From Escherichia coli (GTDB lineage Bacteria; Pseudomonadota; Gammaproteobacteria; Enterobacterales; Enterobacteriaceae), in the NCBI RefSeq assembly GCF_965641715.1, contig NZ_OZ282453.1: a stretch of DNA of 64,000 nucleotides; one strand, given 5' to 3'. Positions within the stretch are counted from its first letter, which is position 1; the number at the start of each line of letters is the position of its first letter. Below, piece by piece: positions 7,915 to 64,000 of the stretch. The position numbers were made by a program, and so were the translations under genes. The notes beneath the pieces are model-generated. The model saw only the letters and a list, made by a program, of their open reading frames with translations, searched no databases and was not told the origin of the DNA.

Positions 7915-8818
7915 ACATCTCCTGCGGTACGACCGATTTCGCCAGCAACCATTCACGAAATTGCTGCAAGTGCGGTGAGTCAGATTTCTCTTCCTGCCAC
8001 GTCATAATAAAACGATTACCGGTACGAATAGGCACATCACAGGGAATCACCATATCGCCACTATCCAAATCATGTTGAATAGCGAACCGTGGTAACAGCG
8101 CCACGCCGAGATTAGAGCGCACGGCGGCAATCAGCATTGAAAGCAAATCGAAACGTGGTCCGTTGTTGACCAGCGGACTACTAACGCCAGATAAAGCAAA
8201 CCACTCTTCCCAGCCAGTAATACGGGTGCTTTGATGCAGAAGTGGTAACTCAGTAAGCAGTTCTGCCACTGACAGTTTTTGATCGGACATTGCAAGCAAA
8301 CTGCCGCTGCATACCGGCAAAATCTCCTCATCAAAGAGATATTCTACTTCCGCCCAGGGTGCGCAAAAATTTTCGCGCATAATGACAGCATCGTACTCCC
8401 GATTAAGAAAATCGCCGTTATTAGCTAAAGAATGAATATTAACAATAATATCGGGATGTAACTTTGTGAATTCATGTAAATTTGGGATTAACCAGTGGGT
8501 ACTAAAAGTAGGATTAACGGCAAGTTCAATAACCTGAACCGTAGGCTGCCAGGTCATAATGGTATTGGTATCGCGTTCCAGCTTATTTAATGTTTCTTTT
8601 ACTATCCCCAGGTAATACTTCCCTTTATCATTAAGAAAAATGCGTTTTTTAGAGTGTGAAAATAACGGAGTACGTAAAAATTCCTCCAGCGCACTTACTT
8701 GTCTGAATACTGCACTTTGGGTTAACGCTAACTCCTCTGCCGCTCTGGTATAACTTTCATGACGTGCGACGACCTCAAAAGTCACCAGCAGTTCCGTTTT
8801 AGGTATTTTCCCTCGCAT
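7913..8818 (-). CDS. LysR-family transcriptional regulator
   Basis: 301 aa; N-terminal HTH (…FEVVARHESYTRAAEELALTQSAVFRQV…) typical of LysR-type regulators. Confidence 0.85.
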   Translation of the reverse strand: MRGKIPKTELLVTFEVVARHESYTRAAEELALTQSAVFRQVSALEEFLRTPLFSHSKKRIFLNDKGKYYLGIVKETLNKLERDTNTIMTWQPTVQVIELAVNPTFSTHWLIPNLHEFTKLHPDIIVNIHSLANNGDFLNREYDAVIMRENFCAPWAEVEYLFDEEILPVCSGSLLAMSDQKLSVAELLTELPLLHQSTRITGWEEWFALSGVSSPLVNNGPRFDLLSMLIAAVRSNLGVALLPRFAIQHDLDSGDMVIPCDVPIRTGNRFIMTWQEEKSDSPHLQQFREWLLAKSVVPQEM

Positions 8819-9100
8819 AATGCCGTCCCTTAAAAATAGTTTAAACCATCAAAAATACATTACTTATTACGAAGTAATGGTAACCAAAGCAGCAATAAAT
8901 AATTTATAAGAATCATGATTGACATTTATAAACCAGTAAGGCTGGCGTGACAAATATCTTAATCAGATAATAATAATCCGAAAAGCACAGCGCCTTTCGA
9001 ATTATCCGGAATCACATTAAGTGAAAATTATTAAATTGATATCATTTATCATATCTGTGGATATTATGATAAACAATCAACAAAGATTTTATTTTTGATT
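8819..9100. promoter_or_regulatory. AT-rich upstream region of the LysR gene
   Basis: About 280 bp of very AT-rich DNA immediately 5' of the LysR start; no specific motif assigned. Confidence 0.3.
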
Positions 9101-9383
9101 TATAGCATATCCCTCTAAGAATTTTTGCGATGCTGCAATATCCGGGGTAAAGACCCGATCCTGGCTGACAAATGGCACGACTTGACGAAAAGCGGTGAAC
9201 ATCGCTTTTGTTGATTTACTTAACGCTACGGTCAAACGCTGGGAAGCCAGTGCATCAGGTAACGATTCGAAATTCGCCGTCGTTCTTATTCGTGGCTTGC
9301 GGTCGGTTGCGGCAATCCACAGTGGCTGTGGTCATGCAGTCAAGCCTGCAGTCAGATTTCGACCGTGGTTAACCGTTTAAGGC

Positions 9384-9484
9384 ATAAAAAAGGCCATCAT
9401 ACGATGGCCAACCATGTCGAAACCGACAGCCCTTCGCCATTCCTGTAGAGGGAAGCGGCGAGGGCTATTTCTTATTACAGATAT
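9384..9484 (-). ncRNA. sdhX: 3'-UTR-derived sRNA SdhX (RybD) with its intrinsic terminator
   Basis: Lies immediately 3' of the sucD stop on the minus strand; terminator hairpin ggccatcgtatgatggcc followed by a U-run, as at the K-12 sucD 3' end. Confidence 0.6.
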
Positions 9485-10354
9485 TTATTTCAGAACAGTT
9501 TTCAGTGCTTCACCGATATCCGCCAGGCTGCGAACGGTTTTCACGCCTGCGGCTTCCAGAGCAGCGAATTTCTCATCCGCAGTCCCTTTCCCACCGGCAA
9601 TGATGGCACCCGCGTGGCCCATACGTTTGCCTTTCGGCGCAGTCACACCAGCGATGTAACCCACAACTGGCTTGGTAACGTGCTCTTTGATGTACGCAGC
9701 TGCTTCTTCTTCAGCGCTACCGCCGATCTCACCGATCATCACGATCGCTTCGGTCTGCGGATCTTTTTCGAACATTTCAAGAATGTCGATAAAGTTAGAG
9801 CCAGGGATCGGGTCACCGCCGATACCGACACAGGTCGACTGACCGAAACCGTAATCCGTGGTCTGTTTAACCGCTTCATAGGTCAGTGTACCGGAACGGG
9901 AAACGATACCCACTTTACCCGGTTTGTGAATGTGACCCGGCTGAATACCGATTTTGCATTCACCCGGAGTGATAACGCCTGGGCAGTTCGGGCCGATCAT
10001 ACGAACGCCTGCTTCATCCAGCTTCACTTTCACAGTCAGCATATCCAGCGTCGGGATGCCTTCAGTGATGGTGATAATCAGTTTGATGCCTGCGTCGATG
10101 GCTTCCAGAATGGAGTCTTTGCAGAACGGTGCTGGTACGTAGATAACAGAAGCGGTAGCGCCAGTAGCAGCAACAGCTTCACGCACGGTGTTGAACACCG
10201 GCAGGCCGAGGTGGGTAGTACCGCCTTTACCTGGAGTTACGCCACCAACCATTTTGGTGCCGTATGCAATGGCCTGTTCAGAGTGGAAAGTCCCCTGGCT
10301 ACCGGTAAAGCCCTGGCAGATAACCTTGGTGTTTTTATCAATTAAAATGGACAT
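9485..10354 (-). CDS. sucD: succinyl-CoA synthetase alpha subunit
   Basis: 289 aa, [24 protein letters not shown]…. Confidence 0.97.
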
Positions 10355-52417: not shown

Positions 52418-54082
52418 TTACTCGCCAACTTTCGCCCAGGTATCACGCAGCCCAACGGTGCGGTTAAATACCGGTTTTTCGGCAGTGGAATGGCGGCTAT
52501 CGAGGCAGAAGTAACCTTCACGCTCAAACTGGAATGCTTTACCCGCAACCGCATCTTTCAGCGACGGTTCAGCAAAGCCCTGTTTGATCACCAGCGATTC
52601 CGGGTTAATCACCGACAGGAAATCATCCGCAGCACCAGGGTTCGGCACACTGAACAGACGGTCATACAAACGGATTTCAACCGGCAGCGCATGTGCCGCG
52701 CTCACCCAGTGAATAACACCTTTGACTTTACGACCATCTGCCGGATCTTTACTTAAGGTATCGGCGTCATAAGTACAGAAGATGGTGGTGATATTACCTT
52801 CGGCATCTTTCTCGACGCGTTCTGCCTTAATCACATAAGCATTACGCAGACGCACTTCTTTACCGAGCACCAGACGTTTGTACTGCTTGTTAGCTTCTTC
52901 GCGGAAATCGGCGCGATCGATCCAAATCTCACCGCTAAACGGCACCTGACGGCTCCCCATTTCCGGTTTGTTCGGATGGTTCGGCATGGTGACCATTTCG
53001 CCTTCGCCCTGATAGTTTTCGATAACCAGTTTCACCGGATCGATAACCGCCATTGCGCGCGGCGCATTTTCGTTGAGATCTTCACGGATGCAGGATTCCA
53101 GCGACGCCATCTCAATGGTGTTGTCCTGCTTGGTCACGCCGATGCGTTTGCAGAACTCACGAATAGAAGCCGCAGTGTAACCACGACGACGCAGACCGGA
53201 AATGGTCGGCATTCGCGGGTCATCCCAGCCTTCAACGTGCTTGTCGGTCACCAGCAGGTTCAGCTTACGCTTGGACATCACAGTGTATTCCAGATTCAGG
53301 CGCGAGAATTCGTACTGGCGCGGGTGAACAGGAATGGTGATGTTGTCCAGCACCCAGTCGTACAGGCGACGGTTGTCCTGGAACTCAAGCGTACACAGAG
53401 AGTGCGTAATACCTTCCAGCGCATCGCTGATGCAATGGGTGAAGTCGTACATCGGGTAGATGCACCACTTGTTGCCAGTCTGGTGGTGTTCAGCAAATTT
53501 AATGCGGTACAGCACCGGATCGCGCATTACGATAAATGGCGACGCCATGTCGATTTTCGCACGCAGGCAGGCTTTACCTTCTTCAAAACCGCCGGTACGC
53601 ATTTTCTCGAACAGCGCCAGGTTCTCTTCAACGCTACGGTCGCGGTACGGGCTGTTTTTACCAGGCTGCGTCAGGGTGCCGCGGTATTCGCGGATCTGTT
53701 CCGGCGTCAGTTCATCAACGTACGCCAGGCCTTTATTGATCAGTTCGATCGCATAGGCGTGGAGCTGATCAAAATAATCGGAGGAGTAACGGACGTTACC
53801 AGACCAGTGAAAACCTAACCACTCAACGTCGTTTTTGATCGAATCGACATACTCGATATCTTCTTTTACCGGGTTAGTGTCGTCGAAACGCAGGTTGCAC
53901 TGGCCTTTATAGTCCTGGGCGATCCCGAAGTTCAGGCAGATAGATTTCGCATGGCCAATATGCAGATAGCCATTCGGCTCCGGCGGGAAACGGGTGTGTA
54001 CTGTGGTGTGCTTACCACTGGCCAGATCTTCATCGATGATCTGACGAATAAAGTTAGTCGGGCGGGCTTCTGCCTCACTCAT
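52418..54082 (-). CDS. glnS: glutaminyl-tRNA synthetase
   Basis: 554 aa, [24 protein letters not shown]…; class I HIGH motif (HIGH). Confidence 0.97.
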
Positions 54083-54301
54083 CGTGGATTCCTCAAAGCG
54101 TAAACAACGTATAACGGCGTATGATCTTATAAGCGGGACAGGCTGACAACTGTTAGTTAGCGAAAAAGTGGTTTTGCGTAAGATATTGGGGCGTTTTCTG
54201 CGCTACAGCCAGCAGATCCTCGCGCTGGAGACGTAAGGCCAAACGTCGCCAGCCTGACGCGTTTATTAAATTTCCGGATGAGCTGGCCGCAGAGTCGTAG
54301 A

Positions 54302-55063
54302 TTAATCCGCTATGATTAAACGCGTCGACAAGGACGCCAGCGTTTTGCGCGTCTGCCCATCAAGCTGATTATCCGTAATAATCTCTGTCAGTTCATTAAG
54401 ATGCGCGATATTAAACAGCGACCATGAACCGTATTTTGAGCTGTCAGCCAGGAGAATTTTGCGCGAAGCATGCGCGATAAGATCGCGTTTTAGTGCGGCT
54501 TTCTCTTCCGTGGGTGCTGTAATACCCTTTTCAAGATCCCAGCTGTTACAGCTTAAAAATGCCACGTCCGGCCAGGTATTTTGCAGCATTTTACGACCAT
54601 GTTCGCCAATGCAGGACTGGCTGGAGTCGTCGATACGTCCGCCGATAATCGTCACTTCAATCTGCTTGAATTCAGCCAAAAAAAGCGCGATATGCAGGTC
54701 GCTGGTGATCACGCGAAGCGGTAAATGGGTAATCTGCCGCGCAAGTTCAATCATTGTCGTACCGGCATCAAGGACGACGGAATCCCCCGCTTTGACCATT
54801 GACGCCGCTGCGCTGGCGATGGCATGTTTTTCCGCCAGGCTGCGCTGCATTTTCTCATGGGTAGTCGGTTGGGTAGGAATAAACCGGTTGAGGGTCACAC
54901 CGCCGTGTGTACGGCTGATAACACCCTGCTCATCGAGTTTTATCAGGTCTCGACGAATCGTGGCCGGCGACGCATTGGTTACCGCCACCAGCTCATCAAC
55001 GGTGACCAGATTATGGCTTTTCAGGTAATCCATGATCTGCTCTAACCGGTTATATCCCTTCAT
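54302..55063 (-). CDS. DeoR/GlpR-family transcriptional regulator
   Basis: 253 aa; N-terminal HTH …[21 protein letters not shown]… typical of DeoR; last gene of the minus-strand kinase-dehydrogenase-regulator operon. Confidence 0.85.
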
Positions 55064-55064
55064 T

Positions 55065-56051
55065 TTATTCTCGCGAAATCTGCATTGCTAACTGGATGGA
55101 AACTGCCATGCTCTCAGACTTGGCTTTTCCTGTCCAGGCAATATCAAATGCGGTGCCGTGGTCGGCAGAAGTACGAATAAATGGCAACCCGGCGGTGATA
55201 TTCACCCCATCATAAAATCCAAGCAGTTTTAAAGGGATATGCCCCTGATCGTGGTACATAGCCACCACCATATCGAATAGCCCTTCATGGCACTGCATGA
55301 ACACGGTATCTGGCGGGCACGGGCCAGTAACATCAATATCTTCGGCCTGCATTGCTTCAATCGCAGGTGCGATAATCTCGATTTCCTCAGTGCCGAATAA
55401 ACCGTGTTCCCCTGCATGTGGATTTACACCCGCCACGGCAATACGCGGACGCTCAATACCGACACGTTTCAGGAAGTGGTTCGCAACTCGAATAACCGTT
55501 TTGACCCTTTCACCGTTCAATGTATCCAGGAATTTACGCAGTGAGATGTGAGTCGAAATATGGATAACCTTGAGCTTATCGGTATAGAGCACCATCGCGT
55601 ACTCTTTGCTGCCGGTAAGATGGGCCAGCAATTCCGTATGGCCAGGATAGTTATGCCCGCCAAGATGCAGCGCTTCTTTATTCAACGGCGCAGTGGCTAT
55701 GGCTTTCACCTCGCCTGATAAGGCCAGGGCCGTTGCACGTTTGATACAGCGATACGCTAAATCGCCTGCCGCAGCCTGTACCACTCCGGGTGTCAGCGCA
55801 TCGGGGTTAGCCAGCGGCTCATCCATCACGTTAATCACGCCGGGAGCAAAGTGGGCGTCGCACACCTTTTGAATGACGCGTAACTCTGTCTGCGGCGTGA
55901 TATTCATCGCCATAATACGTCGTAACGTGCGCACACAGCCCACCACCACCACCGGGGCACCAGCAAGCCCGGCTTCGCTCAGGGATTTAATAATGATCTC
56001 CGGGCCAATACCCGCCGGATCGCCCATCGTTACCGCAATAATATTATTCAC
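55065..56051 (-). CDS. PdxA-family NAD-dependent dehydrogenase (PdxA2-like)
   Basis: 328 aa with a PdxA-type N-terminus (…[14 protein letters not shown]…); adjacent to a DUF1537 kinase. Confidence 0.8.
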
Positions 56052-57282
56052 TACGCTTCTCCTCGATAAAATTCAGAACCTGATGCAACGTGGTCTCATC
56101 GCCAAACCCACCGGCTTTCGTCATCACCGAACGGGACCAGACGCCGCCCAGAAAGTGACCGTATGGAACGCACTGCGCCACCTTCCCCGTAATACGAAAC
56201 CCGGTCGCACCTAACGCACTGGCTGTTGCCATTGCGACATCGCCACCAGAGAGATAAAGGGCATCAGGGGTGACACGAAGCAGAACTTGCCGGGTAAGTT
56301 CGCCAAGAAACCGGCAAATTTTTTCCCCAAGCGCAGCGCGACTCATCTGCCAACGCTGGCAAAGGGTGTCGATATGGTGCCTTGCTTCAGAATCGGTACA
56401 GGTGTGGACAATGCAGTGGTCCCCTTTCTGTAAGGCCTGCACAATACGCGCGTCATAGCCCCTGGCGTTGCCTGCCAGAATGTGTTCAACATCGACGTAT
56501 ATCTGTGTGATACGTGAGTGTGAATGCAGTGTGGCGATCTGCCGTTGAGCGATTTCGCTCATTGAACCAATAATGGCCAGCACGGTGGGTGGCGGCATAA
56601 TCGCCGAGCGCCGGGCAACGGCATCACAAATACCAGCGGAGCCGACCAGCAGCAGCGGTTGTTTAGCCTGCATCACAGCGGCAGCGATGCAATCCAGGTC
56701 GCTGTCCGTCTGCGCATCCATCACCCCAATCCACGGTTGCTCACGAGACAAATGGCTGAGCTCAGAAACTGTAACGGGCTGGCATGGAATGGCCGTCTGC
56801 AACCGAATGATGTCCGCAATTCGTGCGCTCATTACCGGGGTTTTTGGATCGCTGGCAAACTCGGTTTCCGTTAGCCGCACGCCGTTTACCCGACACTCAC
56901 CGTCCACCGTGGTCCTTCCCACCTGGGGAAATGCGGGGGCAACCACTGCGCCCGTTATGCCGCATGCCTGCATCAGGGCTTCAATTTCTGCGCCGATATT
57001 CCCTCGCAGCGTGGAATCTATCTTTTTAATCATGAGCGGCGGGTTATTCGCCAGAGGGAGATGACTCATCAGCGAGGTCATTTTCATCGCGGCCTGCTTA
57101 GGATCCATCGCCCGACTGTCGCTATTAATCACCCATACGCTTGCATCACCGTGATAAGGCGTTGCAAAGGCCACATCAACCGTATGTCCCACCTGCGCCA
57201 GGCTTACTCCTGCGTCGTTGGCCCCTGTGAAATCATCGGCAACGACGAGAATGCTCGGCTTAGTGATTCCCTTTTCCATCAT
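56044..57282 (-). CDS. four-carbon acid-sugar kinase family protein (DUF1537; DtnK/OtnK/DenK-like)
   Basis: N-terminal …ILVVADDFTGANDAG… motif; start ambiguous (57282, 57279 or 57321); overlaps the PdxA-family gene by 8 nt. Confidence 0.75.
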   Translation of the reverse strand: MMEKGITKPSILVVADDFTGANDAGVSLAQVGHTVDVAFATPYHGDASVWVINSDSRAMDPKQAAMKMTSLMSHLPLANNPPLMIKKIDSTLRGNIGAEIEALMQACGITGAVVAPAFPQVGRTTVDGECRVNGVRLTETEFASDPKTPVMSARIADIIRLQTAIPCQPVTVSELSHLSREQPWIGVMDAQTDSDLDCIAAAVMQAKQPLLLVGSAGICDAVARRSAIMPPPTVLAIIGSMSEIAQRQIATLHSHSRITQIYVDVEHILAGNARGYDARIVQALQKGDHCIVHTCTDSEARHHIDTLCQRWQMSRAALGEKICRFLGELTRQVLLRVTPDALYLSGGDVAMATASALGATGFRITGKVAQCVPYGHFLGGVWSRSVMTKAGGFGDETTLHQVLNFIEEKRSE

Positions 57283-57299
57283 CACTCCAGGTTGTTTTA

Positions 57300-57448
57300 T
57301 GATGACAATGATTATATTCAATCACGATTGATTAAATGTGAGCAAGTTCAAGTTATTAATCACTCGAATAAATTATAAAATTAGGCCATGTTACGTAGAC
57401 AACGGTATTTTGAATGATTGATTTCAATCACGAGAAGAGAGGTTATTT
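57300..57448. promoter_or_regulatory. divergent promoter/operator region with repeated TTCAATCACGA motifs
   Basis: Motif at 57318-57328 and 57423-57433, each next to a gattgatt half-site; lies between the divergent kinase and alcohol-dehydrogenase operons. Confidence 0.45.
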
Positions 57449-58606
57449 GTGGTAATTATCAATAGCACGATACTGAGCGGCGCAGGCGCTATCCCTTCCC
57501 TGACGTCGCTCTTACCCGGCGTCAGAAAATTGCTGCTGGTCACAGACAGCAATATTGCGCAGCTTAACGGAGTGCAGCAGATTCGCGCCTTACTGGAAAA
57601 GCACTGCCCGCAGGTGAGCGTTATCGATAATGTGCCTGCAGAGCCTACGCATCATGATGTGCGCCAGCAAATGGCGACCCTCGGCAACGCGTCGTTTGAT
57701 GTAGTAGTGGGCGTCGGCGGCGGCAGCGTGCTGGATGTCGCAAAACTGTTGTCGGTGCTTTGTCACCCCGATTCACCGGGGCTGGATGCGCTGCTTGCCG
57801 GTGAAAAACCGACGCAGCGGGTGCAATCATGGTTGATTCCTACAACCGCCGGTACCGGCTCAGAAGCCACGCCAAATGCGATTCTGGCGATCCCTGAACA
57901 AAGCACGAAGGTGGGTATTATTTCTCCGGTGCTGCTACCGGATTATGTGGCACTTTTCCCCGAGCTGACCACCAGCATGCCCGCACATATTGCAGCGTCT
58001 ACGGGCATTGATGCGCTTTGTCACTTACTGGAGTGTTTTACCGCGACCGTGGCAAATCCGGTCAGCGATAACGCGGCGCTAACCGGGTTAAGTAAGCTTT
58101 TCCGGCATATTCAACCCGCCGTGAACGATCCTCAGGATCTGCGCGCAAAACTGGAAATGCTGTGGGCGTCTTACTATGGCGGCGTAGCGATAACCCATGC
58201 GGGCACGCACCTGGTCCATGCGCTCTCCTACCCGTTAGGCGGCAAATATCACCTGCCGCACGGTGTGGCGAATGCCATCTTGCTGGCACCGTGCATGGCG
58301 GTTGTTCGCCCCTGGGCGGTCGAGAAATTTGCCCAGGTCTGGGATTGCATTCCCGATGCGGATACATCCTTGAGCGCGGAAGAGAAATCTCACGCTCTGG
58401 TGGCCTGGCTACAGGCATTAGTCAATCAACTCAAGCTGCCCAACAATCTCGCGGATCTTGGCGTACCGCCAGATGATATTACGTCTCTTAGCGCGGCGGC
58501 ACTGAACGTGAAGCGCCTGATGAACAATTCCCCCTGCCAACTGAATCAGCGGGACGTGCAGGCCATTTACCAAACGCTGTTTCCGCAACATCAATTTAAG
58601 GAGTAA
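57449..58606 (+). CDS. iron-containing (group III) alcohol dehydrogenase family oxidoreductase
   Basis: 385 aa with GTG start and upstream RBS gagaagagagg; GGGSVLD nucleotide-binding motif. Confidence 0.8.
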   Translation: MVIINSTILSGAGAIPSLTSLLPGVRKLLLVTDSNIAQLNGVQQIRALLEKHCPQVSVIDNVPAEPTHHDVRQQMATLGNASFDVVVGVGGGSVLDVAKLLSVLCHPDSPGLDALLAGEKPTQRVQSWLIPTTAGTGSEATPNAILAIPEQSTKVGIISPVLLPDYVALFPELTTSMPAHIAASTGIDALCHLLECFTATVANPVSDNAALTGLSKLFRHIQPAVNDPQDLRAKLEMLWASYYGGVAITHAGTHLVHALSYPLGGKYHLPHGVANAILLAPCMAVVRPWAVEKFAQVWDCIPDADTSLSAEEKSHALVAWLQALVNQLKLPNNLADLGVPPDDITSLSAAALNVKRLMNNSPCQLNQRDVQAIYQTLFPQHQFKE

Positions 58607-58609
58607 ATC

Positions 58610-59497
58610 ATGCCAAAAACCATTGAAGGTGTATTAACCGCCATCGTCACCCCGTTTACCGCGACCGGCGTCCTGAATCTCCCGGCGTTAAAAGTGCAGG
58701 TTAATCGCCAACTGGAAGCCGGTAACGCGATTTTTTGCGGCGGCACCAACGGCGAGTTTTTTGTGTTGAACGAACAGGAGAAGCTCAGCGTTACGCAAAC
58801 CTGCGTGGATGAAGTGGCTGGCCGCGCACCGGTCGTGGCGCACATTGGTGAGATCTCGACGCGCGAAACCATTCGTCTGGGTCAGCAGATTGAAAAACTG
58901 GGCGTTGATGCGGTATCGGTCATTACCCCGTACTTTGTACCGCTAAAACAGGAAGAGCTGATTGCCCATTACACCGCAATTGCCGACGCACTAAGCATTC
59001 CCATGTTTCTCTATAACATCCCGGCCCGCACCGGCAATACGATTCAGCCGGAAACCGCGCGCGCTCTGGCGTCGCATCCCAATATCATTGGGATTAAAGA
59101 CAGCGCCGGAAGCTACGAAAGCCTGAAGGGTTTTCTCGATGCTGTGCGCAACATTGACGGCTTTAATGTGCTCAACGGCCCGGATTCGCTGATCCATAAA
59201 GGGTTTGTCGAGGGGTGTTCAGCCTGTATTTCCGGGCTCGCCAACGTCGCGCCGCGAGAAATCAATGCCATCTGGTCTCGCTTCCATGCCGGTGATATTG
59301 AAGGATCGTATCAGGCACAGGAGAGTGTGACTGGCCTGCGTACCGATCTTTATAAAGTAGCATTCTCCCCAGCTGCGGTGAAAAAAGCGTTGCAGCTTAT
59401 GGGGCATGATGTTGGTGATAGCCGCTACGCGGTTAATTTCACGCCTGAACAGATCAGCGAGATTCAACAAATTATTCGTCATTATCACATTAATTAA
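58610..59497 (+). CDS. DapA/NanA-family class I aldolase (dihydrodipicolinate synthase-like lyase)
   Basis: 295 aa with GTNGE motif, a Tyr in ITPYF and a Schiff-base Lys candidate in IIGIKDS (Lys163); 3 nt after the dehydrogenase gene. Confidence 0.8.
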   Translation: MPKTIEGVLTAIVTPFTATGVLNLPALKVQVNRQLEAGNAIFCGGTNGEFFVLNEQEKLSVTQTCVDEVAGRAPVVAHIGEISTRETIRLGQQIEKLGVDAVSVITPYFVPLKQEELIAHYTAIADALSIPMFLYNIPARTGNTIQPETARALASHPNIIGIKDSAGSYESLKGFLDAVRNIDGFNVLNGPDSLIHKGFVEGCSACISGLANVAPREINAIWSRFHAGDIEGSYQAQESVTGLRTDLYKVAFSPAAVKKALQLMGHDVGDSRYAVNFTPEQISEIQQIIRHYHIN

Positions 59498-59556
59498 ATT
59501 AACTCTATTATCCAGCCCGCTATAACGTATAGATAAAGAGAATAAAGGATTACCCC

Positions 59557-60315
59557 ATGTTTTTGTGGTTTATGCAGCCAGATATCTGGCTCACTTTAAT
59601 TACCCTCACCTTTCTGGAAATTATTCTCGGGGTGGATAATATTATTTTTCTTTCACTGGTGGTGGCAAAACTTCCGTTATCACAACAAAATATGGCGCGT
59701 AAACTGGGTTTAAGCTGCGCGATGATTATGCGGATATTATTGCTGATATCCATTGCGTGGCTTTCACATATTACCCAGCCGCTTTTTACCGTGCTGGCGC
59801 TGGAGATTTCGTTCCGCACGTTGATTCTACTCGGGGGCGGGCTGTTCCTGATTTATAAAGCGATACAGGAGATACGCGAAGAGTTGTCGCCCGCGCAGGA
59901 AGACGCGCATGGCAGCGGGTCGCGGCAGCTGTCGCTGTGCGGTGCTATCGTACAGATAATGCTGCTGGATATTGTGTTCAGCCTGGACTCGGTGATCACC
60001 GCCGTCGGCCTTTCTCAGCATATATTTATTATGATTGCTGCCGTCATGATTGCCGTTGGCATCATGATGTTTGCGGCGAAAACCATTGGTGACTTCGTGA
60101 ACGCGACGCCATCGATAAAAATACTGGCGTTAACCTTTTTATTATTTGTCGGCGTATTGTTGGTTGCCGATAGCCTCAATATTCATATTGCCAAAGAGTA
60201 TCTCTACTTCGCGATATTTTTCTCATTAAGCGTGGAGACACTCAATATTTTCCGTGAAAGAAGACATAAAAAAGTTTCGACATCGATCGAAACGCATGAA
60301 TCGAACTCGCATTAA
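59557..60315 (+). CDS. TerC-family integral membrane protein
   Basis: 252 aa polytopic protein with a TerC-like …LEIILGVDNIIFLSLV… motif. Confidence 0.7.
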   Translation: MFLWFMQPDIWLTLITLTFLEIILGVDNIIFLSLVVAKLPLSQQNMARKLGLSCAMIMRILLLISIAWLSHITQPLFTVLALEISFRTLILLGGGLFLIYKAIQEIREELSPAQEDAHGSGSRQLSLCGAIVQIMLLDIVFSLDSVITAVGLSQHIFIMIAAVMIAVGIMMFAAKTIGDFVNATPSIKILALTFLLFVGVLLVADSLNIHIAKEYLYFAIFFSLSVETLNIFRERRHKKVSTSIETHESNSH

Positions 60316-60350
60316 TAAATCTATTACCGACTTTAAGATGGAGTCTAACT

Positions 60351-61520
60351 ATGTCTGTAGCTCTTATTCGTGACGGCGTCATCCGTCCGTCCGAAAATGA
60401 TTCGCATGTGCTTACCGCCATGCTGCCCTCGTCCTGCCCGCAAAACCACGCGGCGAATATTCTGCCTTTGCCGGATGGCGCGTTAATGTGCGTCTGGTTT
60501 GCGGGAACGCAGGAAGGTATTGCCGATATTTCCGTCTGGGGATCGCGGCTGCCCGCTGGCGGAACGCAGTGGAGCGATGCGGTCAAACTGTCCCACGATG
60601 ACACGCGTTCAGAGCAGAACCCGGTACTGTTTCTCGCACCGGATAACGTGCTGTGGCTGCTATGGACCGCACAAATATCCGGTAATCAGGACACCGCCAT
60701 CGTCCGCTACCGTAAGTCAGACGACCTCGGACAAACCTGGGGCGAGATTGCCACGCTGCTCGATAAACCCGGCACGTTCATTCGCCAGCCGATCACGGTG
60801 CTTGATAACGGCAACTGGCTGCTGCCCGTCTTTTATTGCCGTACCCAACCCGGTGAAAAATGGGTCGGCAATGATGATATCAGCGCAGTGAAAATTTCCG
60901 CTGACGGTGGTCACTCATGGCGCGATGTCGAGGTGCCGCAAAGTCTCGGCTGCGTTCATATGAATATCACAATGCTGCACGACGGTACGTTGGCTGCTCT
61001 CTTTCGCAGCCGTTGGGCAGACAACATCTATATCAGCCATTCTGCGGACCACGGCGAGAGCTGGTCGGTGCCGCAAGCAACCGAACTGCCCAACAACAAT
61101 TCGTCTATTCAGGTGACGACGCTTGCCAGCGGTGAGCTGGCGCTGGTGTACAACGCAATGAGTGCGGCAGGCGCAGTAGAACGTCGCGCGTCGCTGTATG
61201 ACGAAATCGACGATGGCGACGACAGTCGCAAAGAACCCACAGCCGTTGGACGCTCCGCTTTCTGGGGTGCCCCGCGCGCGCCGATGACGGTAGCGATTTC
61301 TGCCGATGGCGGGAAAAGCTGGCCGTGGCGGCGCAATCTCGATGAAGGCGATGGCTACTGCATGACCAACAATTCGCTGGAAAAGCTAAATCGCGAGTTC
61401 TCCTACCTCAGTATCAAACAAAGCCCGGACGGTACGCTGCATATCGCTTACACCTGGTGGCGTCAGGCCATCAAGTACGTGCGCATCTCCCCCGAGTGGG
61501 TTAAGGGGCAGGCATTATGA
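60351..61520 (+). CDS. BNR/Asp-box repeat protein, sialidase-superfamily beta-propeller, predicted cytoplasmic
   Basis: Four Asp-boxes: SDDLGQTW (60717-60740), SADGGHSW (60897-60920), SADHGESW (61041-61064), SADGGKSW (61299-61322); N-terminal IRP resembles the sialidase RIP motif; no signal peptide apparent. Confidence 0.75.
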   Translation: MSVALIRDGVIRPSENDSHVLTAMLPSSCPQNHAANILPLPDGALMCVWFAGTQEGIADISVWGSRLPAGGTQWSDAVKLSHDDTRSEQNPVLFLAPDNVLWLLWTAQISGNQDTAIVRYRKSDDLGQTWGEIATLLDKPGTFIRQPITVLDNGNWLLPVFYCRTQPGEKWVGNDDISAVKISADGGHSWRDVEVPQSLGCVHMNITMLHDGTLAALFRSRWADNIYISHSADHGESWSVPQATELPNNNSSIQVTTLASGELALVYNAMSAAGAVERRASLYDEIDDGDDSRKEPTAVGRSAFWGAPRAPMTVAISADGGKSWPWRRNLDEGDGYCMTNNSLEKLNREFSYLSIKQSPDGTLHIAYTWWRQAIKYVRISPEWVKGQAL

Positions 61521-61987
61521 TTATCGGGAATCTCAACCATTTGTCACAGGCGGGGCTTCCCGCTGGCGTGAAAAATATTCTGCTGCGCCCGGAATGTTCG
61601 TTACGGGCGTTATCCGCCAGAGAGGACGGTCGCTGGCAACTGGAAGGATGCCGGTGGTTCTGCACGCTGGGCCTTTCAGACACGCAGCCCGCCGATCTCC
61701 GGCATACGGAGTATCACCATCTGTGGGCCGATATTCAGGTGGTGATTGCCGGTTGTGAGGGCATTAATGCGGGGACGCGGCCCGTAGCGCAGGAAAGCGA
61801 TGAAGAACGTAAGCCCGATCTGTTTATCGCCCCATCCCCTGAAAACAGTGTCGCAATCACCTTACACCCCGGTGATTTCGCCGTCTTTATGCCAGAAGAA
61901 CCCCATCAGGCGCTGTGCGCGGTTGGCGCGGCCACGTCAGTACGTAAAGCGGTCTTTAAGGTACCGCGCGACATGCTGGAAGCCTAA
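61517..61987 (+). CDS. YhcH/YjgK/YiaL-family (DUF386) protein, putative ulosonic-acid anomerase
   Basis: 156 aa resembling E. coli YhcH (…GDFAVFMPEEPH… versus YhcH …GMFAVFMPGEPH…); overlaps the upstream gene by 4 nt. Confidence 0.75.
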   Translation: MIIGNLNHLSQAGLPAGVKNILLRPECSLRALSAREDGRWQLEGCRWFCTLGLSDTQPADLRHTEYHHLWADIQVVIAGCEGINAGTRPVAQESDEERKPDLFIAPSPENSVAITLHPGDFAVFMPEEPHQALCAVGAATSVRKAVFKVPRDMLEA

Positions 61988-62000
61988 AAGGAGAGAAAAA

Positions 62001-63281
62001 ATGACAATGGAAATGATCCTGGCATTAGGAATACTGGTCCTGATGATCGTGCTGATCATGTCGGACAAAATGCCCTTTGGCGCACCGCCACTGCTTGCGT
62101 GTTTATTGCTGGTTGTCTCGGGGCTGTCGACGGTTCAACAGGCTTTTGCCGGATTCGTCAATCCAAGCGTGGTGATGATTGCAGGGTTTATGGTGGTGAT
62201 GGCTGCGCTACAAAAAACCCGGCTTATCAGCAACGTTAAATCTGCGATGATAAGCCTGGTCAATAAAGGCAGTTACCGCAGTTATGGGCTGTTGTTAGTC
62301 ATCGTTATGCTGGGCGCCAGTCTTGCCGGCACCGGCGCGACGGGTTATTACGTGCTGATTCTGTCTCTGGTATCCACCATTCCGTACAGTAAAAAGCTAC
62401 CAACATCGAAATTGATGATGCCACTGGGATTTGCCACCAACCATCCGCTTCTTCCTATCAATCTCGCGCTTCTCTTTGGCGTCACGGCGACCGTACTCGA
62501 AACAGCCGGTTTTCATCAGGAGATTTCGATGGGGCGCTTTGCGCTGGTGAATCTCGTCATGTCAGCGGCTTTTCTGGCGTGGAGTCTGATTGCCTACCGT
62601 TTTCTTCCGGATCATCCCATTGCGGATGCTTCCGAGGATGCGCTGGCCGCACGCGAAGAAACGTTTAACGCCCTTCCTGCCTGGAAAGAGTATTGCACCA
62701 TCGCCGCATTCGCCGTCAGCGTTATCGGCATGATGCTGATGAATATGCTGGGTAATATCGCCTTCGTTATTCCAGGCCTTGCGGGTGCGTTTGTTCTGAT
62801 GATCGATGTACTGGACTTTAAAGAAGTTCGCGATCATATGGGGGCACCGGTCATTTTAATGATGGCGGGGGTGATCGGTGTGGCTGATGCGCTGGCTGGC
62901 ACCGGCTTTACGGCAATGGTAGGCGATGCCGTTGCAGGTGTGCTCGGGTCTGGCGTCTCACCGTTTGTATTTATTGTCGCCTTTGCTTTACTTACCAGTA
63001 CCTGCGCCACCTTCACGGGTTCGAATATGGGGTCAGTCTATATTTTTGCCCCCATCGCCATTGCCGCCTGTACTAGCCTTGGGCTTAACCCGACCGCTGC
63101 CGCGATTGCGGTGGTGATTTCTGGCTGGAATGGCGGCTATATGCCTATTGACGGAATGCCAGCCATGATCCTCGGAATGGGGAAATACAAACTTCCCGAA
63201 TTCTGGGTGTTCTCTGTACCAATGTATCTCATCCGCATTCTGGCGCTTTGTGCAGGCGCTGTTTTTATCTTCCCAATGTAA
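62001..63281 (+). CDS. ion-transporter superfamily permease (DASS/CitMHS/ArsB-like), putative organic anion transporter
   Basis: 426 aa polytopic membrane protein; start taken at the ATG 7 nt after the aaggaga RBS (MTMEMILALGIL…), not the ORF-track start at 61800 which overlaps the upstream gene. Confidence 0.7.
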   Translation: MTMEMILALGILVLMIVLIMSDKMPFGAPPLLACLLLVVSGLSTVQQAFAGFVNPSVVMIAGFMVVMAALQKTRLISNVKSAMISLVNKGSYRSYGLLLVIVMLGASLAGTGATGYYVLILSLVSTIPYSKKLPTSKLMMPLGFATNHPLLPINLALLFGVTATVLETAGFHQEISMGRFALVNLVMSAAFLAWSLIAYRFLPDHPIADASEDALAAREETFNALPAWKEYCTIAAFAVSVIGMMLMNMLGNIAFVIPGLAGAFVLMIDVLDFKEVRDHMGAPVILMMAGVIGVADALAGTGFTAMVGDAVAGVLGSGVSPFVFIVAFALLTSTCATFTGSNMGSVYIFAPIAIAACTSLGLNPTAAAIAVVISGWNGGYMPIDGMPAMILGMGKYKLPEFWVFSVPMYLIRILALCAGAVFIFPM

Positions 63282-63290
63282 TCTCAGACA

Positions 63291-63327
63291 AAAAAAGCGG
63301 CAGAGAAGATCCCTGCCGCTTTTTATT
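63291..63327. terminator. bidirectional intrinsic terminator between the convergent permease gene and nagE
   Basis: aaaaaaa-gcggcag-agaagatcc-ctgccgc-ttttt. Confidence 0.75.
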
Positions 63328-63366
63328 GTTGAATGCGACGCTGCCGTGTCGCATCAGGCATGAAGC
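63328..63366. repeat. REP-like palindrome at the nagE 3' flank
   Basis: gaatgcgacgctgccgtgtcgcatcaggc resembles a REP core. Confidence 0.5.
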
Positions 63367-63369
63367 AGA

Positions 63370-64000
63370 TTACTTTTTGATTTCATACAGCGGTGTTTGA
63401 CCCGCCACAACATGGCCCTGAGCTTTAATGATCAAGCCACTGAAATCGTCGATATTACTGCAAACCACTGGGCTAATCATCGAGCGGGCGTTAGCGTTCA
63501 GGTAATCCAGATCCATTTCCAGAATCGGTTGTCCTGCGCTTACCTGCGCGCCCTCTTCCACCAGACGTTTAAAGCCTTTACCTTCCAGCGCTACGGTATC
63601 GATACCCATATGGACGACGATCTCCGCGCCTTTTTCGGTTTCCAGGCAGAACGCGTGGTTGGTGTTGAAGATTTTCACGATTGTCCCTGCGGCTGGTGAT
63701 ACGACGATTTTATCTGTCGGTTTCACCGCCACACCGTCACCCACTGCTTTGCTGGCGAATGCTTCGTCAGGAACCTGATCCAGTGCCACGACATCACCGG
63801 TAATCGGCGATACCAGCTCCGCGATAGATACCGCGTTTGGTACAGCCTGCGGTTTTGCTACAGGAGCGGCAGTTGCCGGAGTTGCTTCAGCAGAGGCAGC
63901 TGCTACCGGGCCACGGGCAACGACTTTCTTCATCGCATCGCCGATGGATTCTGCTTTCGCGCCAACAATCACCTGAATAGTCTGTTTGTTCAGTTTTACT
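63370..64000 (-). CDS. nagE: PTS N-acetylglucosamine-specific EIICBA component, C-terminal part (5' end lies beyond the window)
   Basis: Translation ends …GQTPLYEIKK; EIIA-Glc-type domain with the GIDTVALEGKGF region; the frame stays open towards the window edge. Confidence 0.85.
   Translation of the reverse strand, partial: VKLNKQTIQVIVGAKAESIGDAMKKVVARGPVAAASAEATPATAAPVAKPQAVPNAVSIAELVSPITGDVVALDQVPDEAFASKAVGDGVAVKPTDKIVVSPAAGTIVKIFNTNHAFCLETEKGAEIVVHMGIDTVALEGKGFKRLVEEGAQVSAGQPILEMDLDYLNANARSMISPVVCSNIDDFSGLIIKAQGHVVAGQTPLYEIKK

Follow-up and report, generated by a model that had tools for sequence, protein, structure and literature searches.

The TerC gene of the glnS-nagE island

The 64,000 nt of Escherichia coli DNA analysed here (contig NZ_OZ282453.1 of assembly GCF_965641715.1, hereafter the window) contain a nine-gene island between glnS and nagE, in which one gene, on the plus strand at 59557..60315, encodes a 252 aa inner-membrane protein of the TerC family that resembles YgdQ of E. 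coli K-12. The gene is preceded by a gene for a DHDPS-family aldolase and followed by one for a BNR_2 (Asp-box) protein, which confirmed the position given in the initial annotation of this sequence, as well as its remark that such an operon is an unusual context for a TerC protein. On the sequence comparisons made here, the association of the gene with this catabolic operon goes far beyond chance, and across related loci it co-varies with the type of transporter encoded by the cassette, and not with the YhcH, iron-containing alcohol dehydrogenase (Fe-ADH) or PdxA2 enzymes.

The open reading frame (ORF) starts with an ATG codon, has an AAGGA ribosome-binding site 7 nt upstream, and has boundaries identical to those of its E. 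coli homologue in RefSeq (WP_000480543, 'TerC family protein', 97% identical). A profile hidden Markov model search supported the family assignment made in the initial annotation, as the Pfam profile PF03741 matched over positions 1–177 of 178 (E 2e-45, 155.2 bits with a cut-off of 27.8). Database matches fell into two groups, with an operon clade at 70–97% identity and the Enterobacterales YgdQ orthologues at approximately 60–63%, K-12 YgdQ being 61% identical. Since the ygdQ locus has the arrangement mutH-ygdQ-ygdR-tas, the gene in the glnS-nagE island was counted as a paralogue, and these comparisons identify it as an additional copy and not as the orthologue of ygdQ. The operon clade is separated from YgdQ by 18 fixed differences, among them the substitution of two acidic residues (Asp) by T88 and Q154.

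An AlphaFold model of the protein, built from 37 sequences and with a mean pLDDT (predicted local distance difference test) score of 73, predicts seven helices in a 3+3+1 arrangement (residues 8–36, 41–73 and 86–110; 127–152, 156–183 and 185–206; and 213–249), with a short hairpin after helix 2. This agrees with the description of the TerC family as having a core of seven transmembrane segments with a 3+3+1 topology (TCDB 2.A.109; PMC4608589). No solved structure resembling the protein was found by sequence, nor by a Foldseek search with the AlphaFold model (best E 0.48). Export of Mn2+ by the E. coli TerC-family protein Alx requires the five acidic residues E86, D92, E213, D216 and D222 (PMC10197570), and four of these five are kept, as E21, D27, D138 and D144 align with Alx E86, D92, D216 and D222, respectively. 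The conserved acidic residues fall within helix 1 and helix 4 and are intramembrane, as is characteristic of TerC proteins.

Gene content and distribution of the island

The island is flanked on the left by glnS (52418–54082) and on the right by nagE (from 63370), both on the minus strand. Three genes are on the minus strand, encoding a DeoR/GlpR-family regulator (54302..55063, PF08220 and PF00455), the position of which is conserved in related loci, the D-threonate 4-phosphate dehydrogenase PdxA2 (55065..56051, NF002891 at 680.9 bits with a cut-off of 583) and, as part of the divergent operon, the D-threonate kinase DtnK (DUF1537; 56044..57279, NF047819 at 531.7 bits with a cut-off of 450). 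DtnK and PdxA2 both score above their NCBIfam equivalog cut-offs, which gives the island a D-threonate catabolic module, and together they are predicted to convert D-threonate to dihydroxyacetone phosphate (DHAP). The intergenic region between dtnK and the Fe-ADH gene (57280..57448) is, from its position, presumed to hold the promoters and operator of both operons.

The rightward operon, on the plus strand, starts with the Fe-ADH gene (57449..58606; PF00465 and PF25137, with no NCBIfam equivalog reached), followed by the 295 aa class I pyruvate aldolase/lyase of the DHDPS/NanA family (58610..59497; PF00701, E 9e-62), which remained below the dapA and nanA equivalog cut-offs and has DHDPS, YagE and NanA as its relatives in the PDB. 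Downstream of the TerC gene are genes for a 389 aa BNR_2 protein with a sialidase fold (60351..61520; PF13088, E 1e-62), a YhcH/YjgK/YiaL protein (DUF386, NanQ-like; 61517..61987, PF04074, E 3e-26), the start of which overlaps the BNR_2 stop by 4 nt, and a 426 aa permease of the SLC13/CitMHS type within the ion-transporter superfamily (62001..63281; PF03600 CitMHS, E 4e-24). The BNR_2 protein has no hydrophobic leader at its N-terminus that could act as a signal peptide and is predicted to be cytoplasmic; its identification as a true sialidase or as a GH143-like hydrolase of 3-deoxy-D-lyxo-heptulosaric acid (Dha) was considered and rejected, with only weak matches to solved sialidases, at the level of the Asp-boxes (NanB, NanC), and no GH143 match. 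The YhcH protein reached 94 bits with the NanQ equivalog model (cut-off 160), with 9jrr and 1jop as its PDB relatives. For the permease, the TIGR00785 DASS score was below the cut-off, the RefSeq name is 'SLC13 family permease', and no solved relative was found. The longest ORFs for the permease and DtnK (61800–63281 and 56044–57321) overextend the genes, and RefSeq homologues place the start of the permease most likely at 62001 (426 aa) and that of DtnK at 57279 (411 aa).

The whole island was present in 1047 of 5426 complete E. coli genomes (about one fifth), with a best identity of 95.3%; for the adjacent glnS, identity to E. coli reaches 99.2%, and the island itself is a somewhat divergent allele. 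The same nine genes in the same order were found in Salmonella enterica subsp. salamae, Kluyvera, the Klebsiella oxytoca group, Metakosakonia and Pseudocitrobacter. In these non-Escherichia genomes the cassette is located at another chromosomal site, near marRAB, indicating that it moves as a unit. No paper dealing with this TerC protein, with the RefSeq accessions of the proteins encoded by the island, or with the breakdown of Dha or threuronate was found in a literature search; the island appears in one genome paper, as GR 6 of strain BEN2908, with no function assigned and with the IS1-disrupted TerC gene omitted.

TerC is part of one of several alternative transporter modules

Using the BNR_2 protein as query, 80 loci were fetched from reference genomes, and these were combined with six loci fetched earlier with TerC queries to give a total of 86 loci, in which the cassette proteins were scored by tblastn. 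The enzyme core (regulator, PdxA2, DtnK, Fe-ADH, aldolase, BNR_2 and YhcH) is widespread in the Enterobacterales, notably in the plant-associated and pectinolytic Pantoea, Erwinia, Pectobacterium, Dickeya and Kosakonia, and was also detected in Gilliamella and Pasteurellaceae. The order aldolase-TerC-BNR_2-YhcH-SLC13 was found in 15 of the 86 loci, representing approximately seven genera, and these loci had neither of the genes that characterise the second version, in which a 470 aa Na+/solute symporter (SSF) takes the TerC slot and a short-chain dehydrogenase (SDR) the SLC13 slot. This aldolase-SSF-BNR_2-YhcH-SDR order was complete in 41 loci, with more than 20 partial variants, and lacked both TerC and SLC13. 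Two further arrangements were without TerC: a TAXI-TRAP transporter in the loci of Cardiobacteriaceae and Lonepinella, and a lone SLC13 gene (52% identity) directly upstream of BNR_2 in one Actinobacillus locus.

SLC13 was present in all 15 TerC-bearing loci and absent where the Na+/solute symporter occurs, and within the Enterobacterales the presence or absence of TerC follows SLC13 without exception. More than 55 loci encode the same enzymes (YhcH, Fe-ADH, PdxA2 and aldolase) and have no TerC. Since TerC occurs only in the SLC13-type island, its function is probably in uptake or ion balance and not in support of the enzymes. The suggestion in the initial annotation that the protein imports or exports a pathway intermediate can hence be narrowed to the uptake step, where precedent in the family favours a cation over an organic intermediate.

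No remnants of the SSF or SDR genes were found in the TerC-type cassettes. Neighbour-joining trees of four core enzymes, which had short internal branches, did not recover the TerC-type cassette as monophyletic, nor did they cleanly separate the cassette types. The cassette is thus a mosaic, in which both TerC and SLC13 have been kept everywhere once paired. In Escherichia sp. MOD1-EC7003 (L008, 8040–9317) the SLC13 gene is 74% identical to the copy in the window and the other genes are 90–99% identical, and the Pseudocitrobacter SLC13 gene (L009, 11651–12928) combines a synonymous divergence (dS) of approximately 1.1 with a nonsynonymous divergence (dN) of 0.008; such odd divergence suggests that SLC13 alleles were replaced through recombination within the cassette.

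Several other arrangements were seen among the loci. The SSF-type cassettes are the commoner version (L013–L075, for example 8587–9999 and 11639–12316 in L015), and several Pantoea genomes have the symporter, BNR_2 and SDR genes alone, with no other cassette genes within approximately 10 kb. A betaproteobacterial cassette with a TctA/TctC carboxylate transporter, in Propionivibrio soli (L080, 11196–13733), carries a YjbE-type TerC gene (approximately 25% identical) and a HAD hydrolase gene after Fe-ADH, with 34 nt before TerC and a 4 nt overlap between TerC and HAD. This was considered as a second, independent recruitment of TerC and not accepted as such, as the orthologues in other Rhodocyclales are in unrelated contexts, leaving one suggestive case. 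A metagenomic contig that seemed to link the cassette to ygdQ-ygdR-tas (L094, 2049–2765) encodes a TerC protein of which the first 140 aa are 100% identical to the Klebsiella operon TerC and the rest 92–95% identical to YgdQ, followed by ygdR-tas-lplT; the contig, with a coverage of 3.5x, is most likely a misassembly in which the two paralogues were joined across the conserved DxxFSLDS core, and it was discarded. Finally, a fungal contig (L090, 8024–13403) has clustered genes for a BNR_2 protein (49% identity), a DHDPS-family protein and PdxA, flanked by genes for transcription factors of the Fungal_trans type, which suggests that a related pathway exists in fungi.

Conservation and selection

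All 1047 island-bearing E. coli genomes, and only these, carry the TerC gene, which is full length in 1046. The lone exception is E. coli BEN2908, a natural mutant in which IS1A (IS1) is inserted in the gene (NZ_LR740776.1, 703609–704869). The dN/dS ratio of the gene relative to its orthologues was 0.06–0.10, matching the range of the neighbouring enzymes, and was 0.066 at a dS of 0.21 in comparison with the E. coli locus L001, and a ratio of about 0.07 indicates strong purifying selection. The gene is kept at the same position in at least seven genera, and a search for plasmid-borne copies found none, the gene being chromosomal. The TerC gene is thus real and maintained, and is predicted to encode a functional transporter of the YgdQ type.

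Upstream region and expression signals

The initial annotation pointed to riboswitch control as a common feature of TerC genes. The spacer between the aldolase and TerC genes (59498..59556, plus strand) is 59 nt in length and carries the ribosome-binding site, and a search for structured RNAs, including the yybP-ykoY riboswitch, gave no relevant Rfam match at E ≤ 1 in positions 54000–64000 of the window or in three orthologous loci (L002, L004 and L006). Riboswitch control is therefore not supported, as the spacer is too short and there is no Rfam match, and the spacers of the orthologous loci range from 59 to 296 nt and are not conserved. The protein also scored below the cut-offs of the NCBIfam subfamilies associated with riboswitches (84.1 versus 138.5 for TIGR03716 YkoY, and 66.7 versus 134.8 for TIGR03717 YjbE).

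A single weak promoter-like match was located in or near the spacer (59482–59511), and the number of consensus matches to internal promoters or terminators was not above that in shuffled sequences. The spacer between TerC and BNR_2 is short in all loci (26–50 nt), which implies co-transcription. In Klebsiella spallanzanii (L010, approximately 8985–9209) an ERIC/IRU-like repeat is inserted in the aldolase-TerC spacer, and in other Klebsiella and Kluyvera spacers a T-rich stretch follows a GC-rich hairpin; this possible attenuator is not present in the window.

A possible role in cation balance during substrate uptake

Permeases of the SLC13/DASS and CitMHS families carry di- and tricarboxylates, and members of CitMHS carry metal-citrate complexes. 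We tentatively favour a role for TerC as a divalent-cation transporter, which would balance metal during the SLC13-mediated uptake of a chelating dicarboxylic sugar acid, a possibility that we rate as somewhat short of an even chance. In one version of the cassette, a YgdQ-type TerC protein and the SLC13/CitMHS-type permease would have been recruited together to form the membrane module. The permease may import an acidic, probably dicarboxylic, metal-chelating sugar acid, and TerC would move a divalent cation of the Mn2+ or Ca2+ class outward across the inner membrane. Co-expression of the two proteins would then prevent the accumulation of cation that enters with the chelator or is freed on its degradation.

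The proposed role of TerC as a cation transporter of the SLC13-type cassette is based on the metal transport by its family and on the link between TerC and SLC13. The characterised TerC proteins Alx, MeeF, MeeY and Vibrio TerC all move metal cations (PMC12096827, PMC10550928). MeeF and MeeY deliver Mn2+ to exported enzymes, and MeeY is needed for the SwrC-dependent export of surfactin, which binds metal (PMC10550928, PMC12096827). In E. coli the Keio ygdQ knockout lost CaCO3 precipitation, and the model derived from that screen has an imported calcium carboxylate being catabolised, followed by Ca2+ efflux via an unidentified exporter (PMC12707652). In addition, the small RNA MgrR, which is regulated by Mg2+, targets the ygdQ mRNA (PMC6239178). 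Family membership, ion-binding residues, operon position, purifying selection and transporter co-variation, which support the proposed role, are observed, and from these we infer what is transported, in which direction, and that TerC is coupled to SLC13.

Several points weigh against a role in cation balance. The fifth residue needed in Alx, E213, is replaced by Met135, as it is in YgdQ, and the CaCO3 phenotype of ygdQ is one unconfirmed hit from a screen (PMC12707652). Both TerC and YgdQ are putative transporters, and a Pfam match alone does not make the SLC13 permease a carrier of metal complexes. The Actinobacillus cassette has its SLC13 homologue (52% identity) and no TerC within 10 kb, which shows that TerC is not an obligate partner. 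The 74% identity of SLC13 in L008, with 97% for TerC, shows that the two alleles recombine independently, which argues against tight physical co-adaptation. The pairing may also stem from a single or very few events, so that the 15 loci are not 15 independent observations.

Alternative explanations

TerC may instead carry an organic molecule of the pathway, either as a second importer of the substrate in the slot vacated by SSF, or as a safety-valve exporter of an intermediate that is toxic, for example the aldehyde-acid or D-threonate. Its location exactly where the alternative cassette has the SSF gene is in line with this, as are the membership of TerC in the LysE superfamily, which includes exporters of small molecules (PMC4608589), and the loss of two acidic residues in the operon clade (T88 and Q154), which hints at an altered specificity. 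The acidic residues that coordinate cations are nevertheless retained at four of the five Alx positions (with Met for E213), the cassette already encodes a dedicated permease, and housekeeping YgdQ, with which the protein shares 61% identity, is itself outside any catabolic context. We also know of no member of the TerC family with an organic substrate, and we consider this alternative unlikely. The strict co-occurrence of TerC and SLC13 in the Enterobacterales would also fit a role in which TerC assists the permease, as a metal chaperone in the membrane or as a biogenesis factor, comparable to MeeY for SwrC or to plant TerC in membrane-protein insertion; both Mee proteins interact with SecYEG, and the export of surfactin by SwrC depends on MeeY (PMC10550928, PMC12096827). 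Such a dependence is however difficult to reconcile with the independent swapping of SLC13 and TerC alleles in L008 (74% versus 97%), with the Actinobacillus permease that does without TerC in its cassette, and with the presence of YgdQ in the host. The cassette furthermore encodes no secreted metalloenzyme, the BNR_2 protein being without a signal peptide, and we consider a chaperone function quite unlikely.

The initial annotation had proposed that TerC supplies a metal to the YhcH-type enzyme, which can be extended to the supply or buffering of metal for the cytoplasmic Fe-ADH, PdxA2 and YhcH. In its favour, enzymes of the Fe-ADH and PdxA families depend on metals and Mn2+ is handled by TerC proteins, but more than 55 related cassettes run orthologous Fe-ADH, PdxA2, aldolase and YhcH enzymes without TerC, and those TerC proteins that have been characterised move metal out of the cytoplasm and not into it. 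Metal supply to these enzymes is therefore disfavoured and seems very improbable. Alternatively, TerC may be a passenger, a ygdQ duplicate picked up during an exchange of the transporter segment and kept for a general usefulness independent of the pathway. The variable junction between aldolase and TerC does resemble a recombination seam, BEN2908 is viable with IS1 in its TerC gene, and the only adjacency of TerC and the cassette outside the Enterobacterales is in the single Propionivibrio soli genome, with orthologues elsewhere. A passenger would not be expected to be full length in 1046 of 1047 E. coli islands, to be kept in at least seven genera with a dN/dS as low as that of the enzymes, to have a short and conserved distance to BNR_2 (26–50 nt) that implies co-transcription, or to follow SLC13 without exception in the Enterobacterales, and we regard this explanation as improbable as well.

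A candidate substrate for the island

A role for TerC in cation balance during uptake would be compatible with a more specific proposal for the whole island. The divergent dtnK-pdxA2 genes imply that a C4 acid is produced, and from a C7 2-keto-3-deoxy dicarboxylate of D-lyxo configuration the aldolase followed by the alcohol dehydrogenase would give D-threonate. Dha is such a compound, being a dicarboxylic ulosonic acid of the pectic polysaccharide rhamnogalacturonan-II. In this scheme Dha would be taken up by SLC13 and processed by YhcH and BNR_2, after which the aldolase would cleave it between C3 and C4 to pyruvate and D-threuronate. Fe-ADH would then reduce the D-threuronate aldehyde to D-threonate, which DtnK and PdxA2 would convert to DHAP. 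The stereochemistry from Dha to D-threonate was derived by hand. The idea fits with a permease of the dicarboxylate type, with the cassette being enriched among pectinolytic and plant-associated bacteria, and with the fungal BNR_2-DHDPS-PdxA cluster. The complete proposal, in which the island is an undescribed pathway for Dha with TerC as a dedicated recycler or exporter of the divalent cation chelated by the substrate, is speculative, and we give it a low probability.

Significance

TerC proteins are very widespread, and the roles understood so far are limited to Mn2+ export and metal chaperoning, in most cases controlled by riboswitches or by stress. To our knowledge, no function is known for the YgdQ branch, which is part of the enterobacterial core genome. 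The TerC protein in the window belongs to a known family, and its context is unusual, conserved and informative, as a YgdQ-type paralogue that is tied to one of two interchangeable uptake modules provides a concrete, inducible setting for finding the substrate of this branch, and suggests that metal balance may be a built-in part of sugar-acid uptake. Roughly one in five complete E. coli genomes, and many gut and plant-associated bacteria, carry the cassette, which is predicted to feed D-threonate into glycolysis. If the combination of Dha catabolism and metal recycling were true, a TerC protein would for the first time have a defined role in carbon catabolism, which would offer a handle on YgdQ function.

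Comparison with known systems

The closest named relative is the inner-membrane protein YgdQ (E. coli b2832), with which the TerC protein shares 61% identity over the full length, the seven-helix core, the motifs ExxLGxDN and DxxFSLDS, and the same pattern at the positions critical in Alx, including Met at the E213 position. It differs in that ygdQ is a core gene (mutH-ygdQ-ygdR-tas) and the gene in the window is an extra copy in an accessory catabolic island, the product of which has a C-terminal tail that is 15 aa longer and 18 clade-specific substitutions. Alx, the riboswitch- and pH-controlled Mn2+ exporter of E. coli, also belongs to PF03741 and has four of its five essential acidic residues conserved in TerC, but identity is only approximately 20%, and Alx has two additional N-terminal helices and a yybP-ykoY riboswitch, whereas the TerC gene in the window has no riboswitch. 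MeeF (YceF) and MeeY (YkoY) of Bacillus subtilis, which act as metal exporters or chaperones, are in the same family, and MeeY with SwrC sets a precedent for the pairing of a TerC protein with one transporter of an anionic, metal-binding substrate. These proteins metalate exported enzymes or substrates in a Gram-positive organism, whereas the cassette in the window encodes no exported client, and the partner of its TerC protein would be an importer.

The TerC protein of the tellurite resistance operon terZABCDE shares PF03741, but no terZ, terA, terB, terD or terE is located near the gene in the window, the neighbours of which have catabolic and transport functions. At the level of the operon, a close system is the cassette with SSF and SDR found in Enterobacter, Leclercia, Pantoea, Pectobacterium, Dickeya and Gilliamella, which has the regulator, DtnK, PdxA2, Fe-ADH, aldolase, BNR_2 and YhcH in common with the island, in the same order and at 60–85% identity, and differs in having the 470 aa Na+/solute symporter in place of TerC and the short-chain dehydrogenase in place of SLC13.

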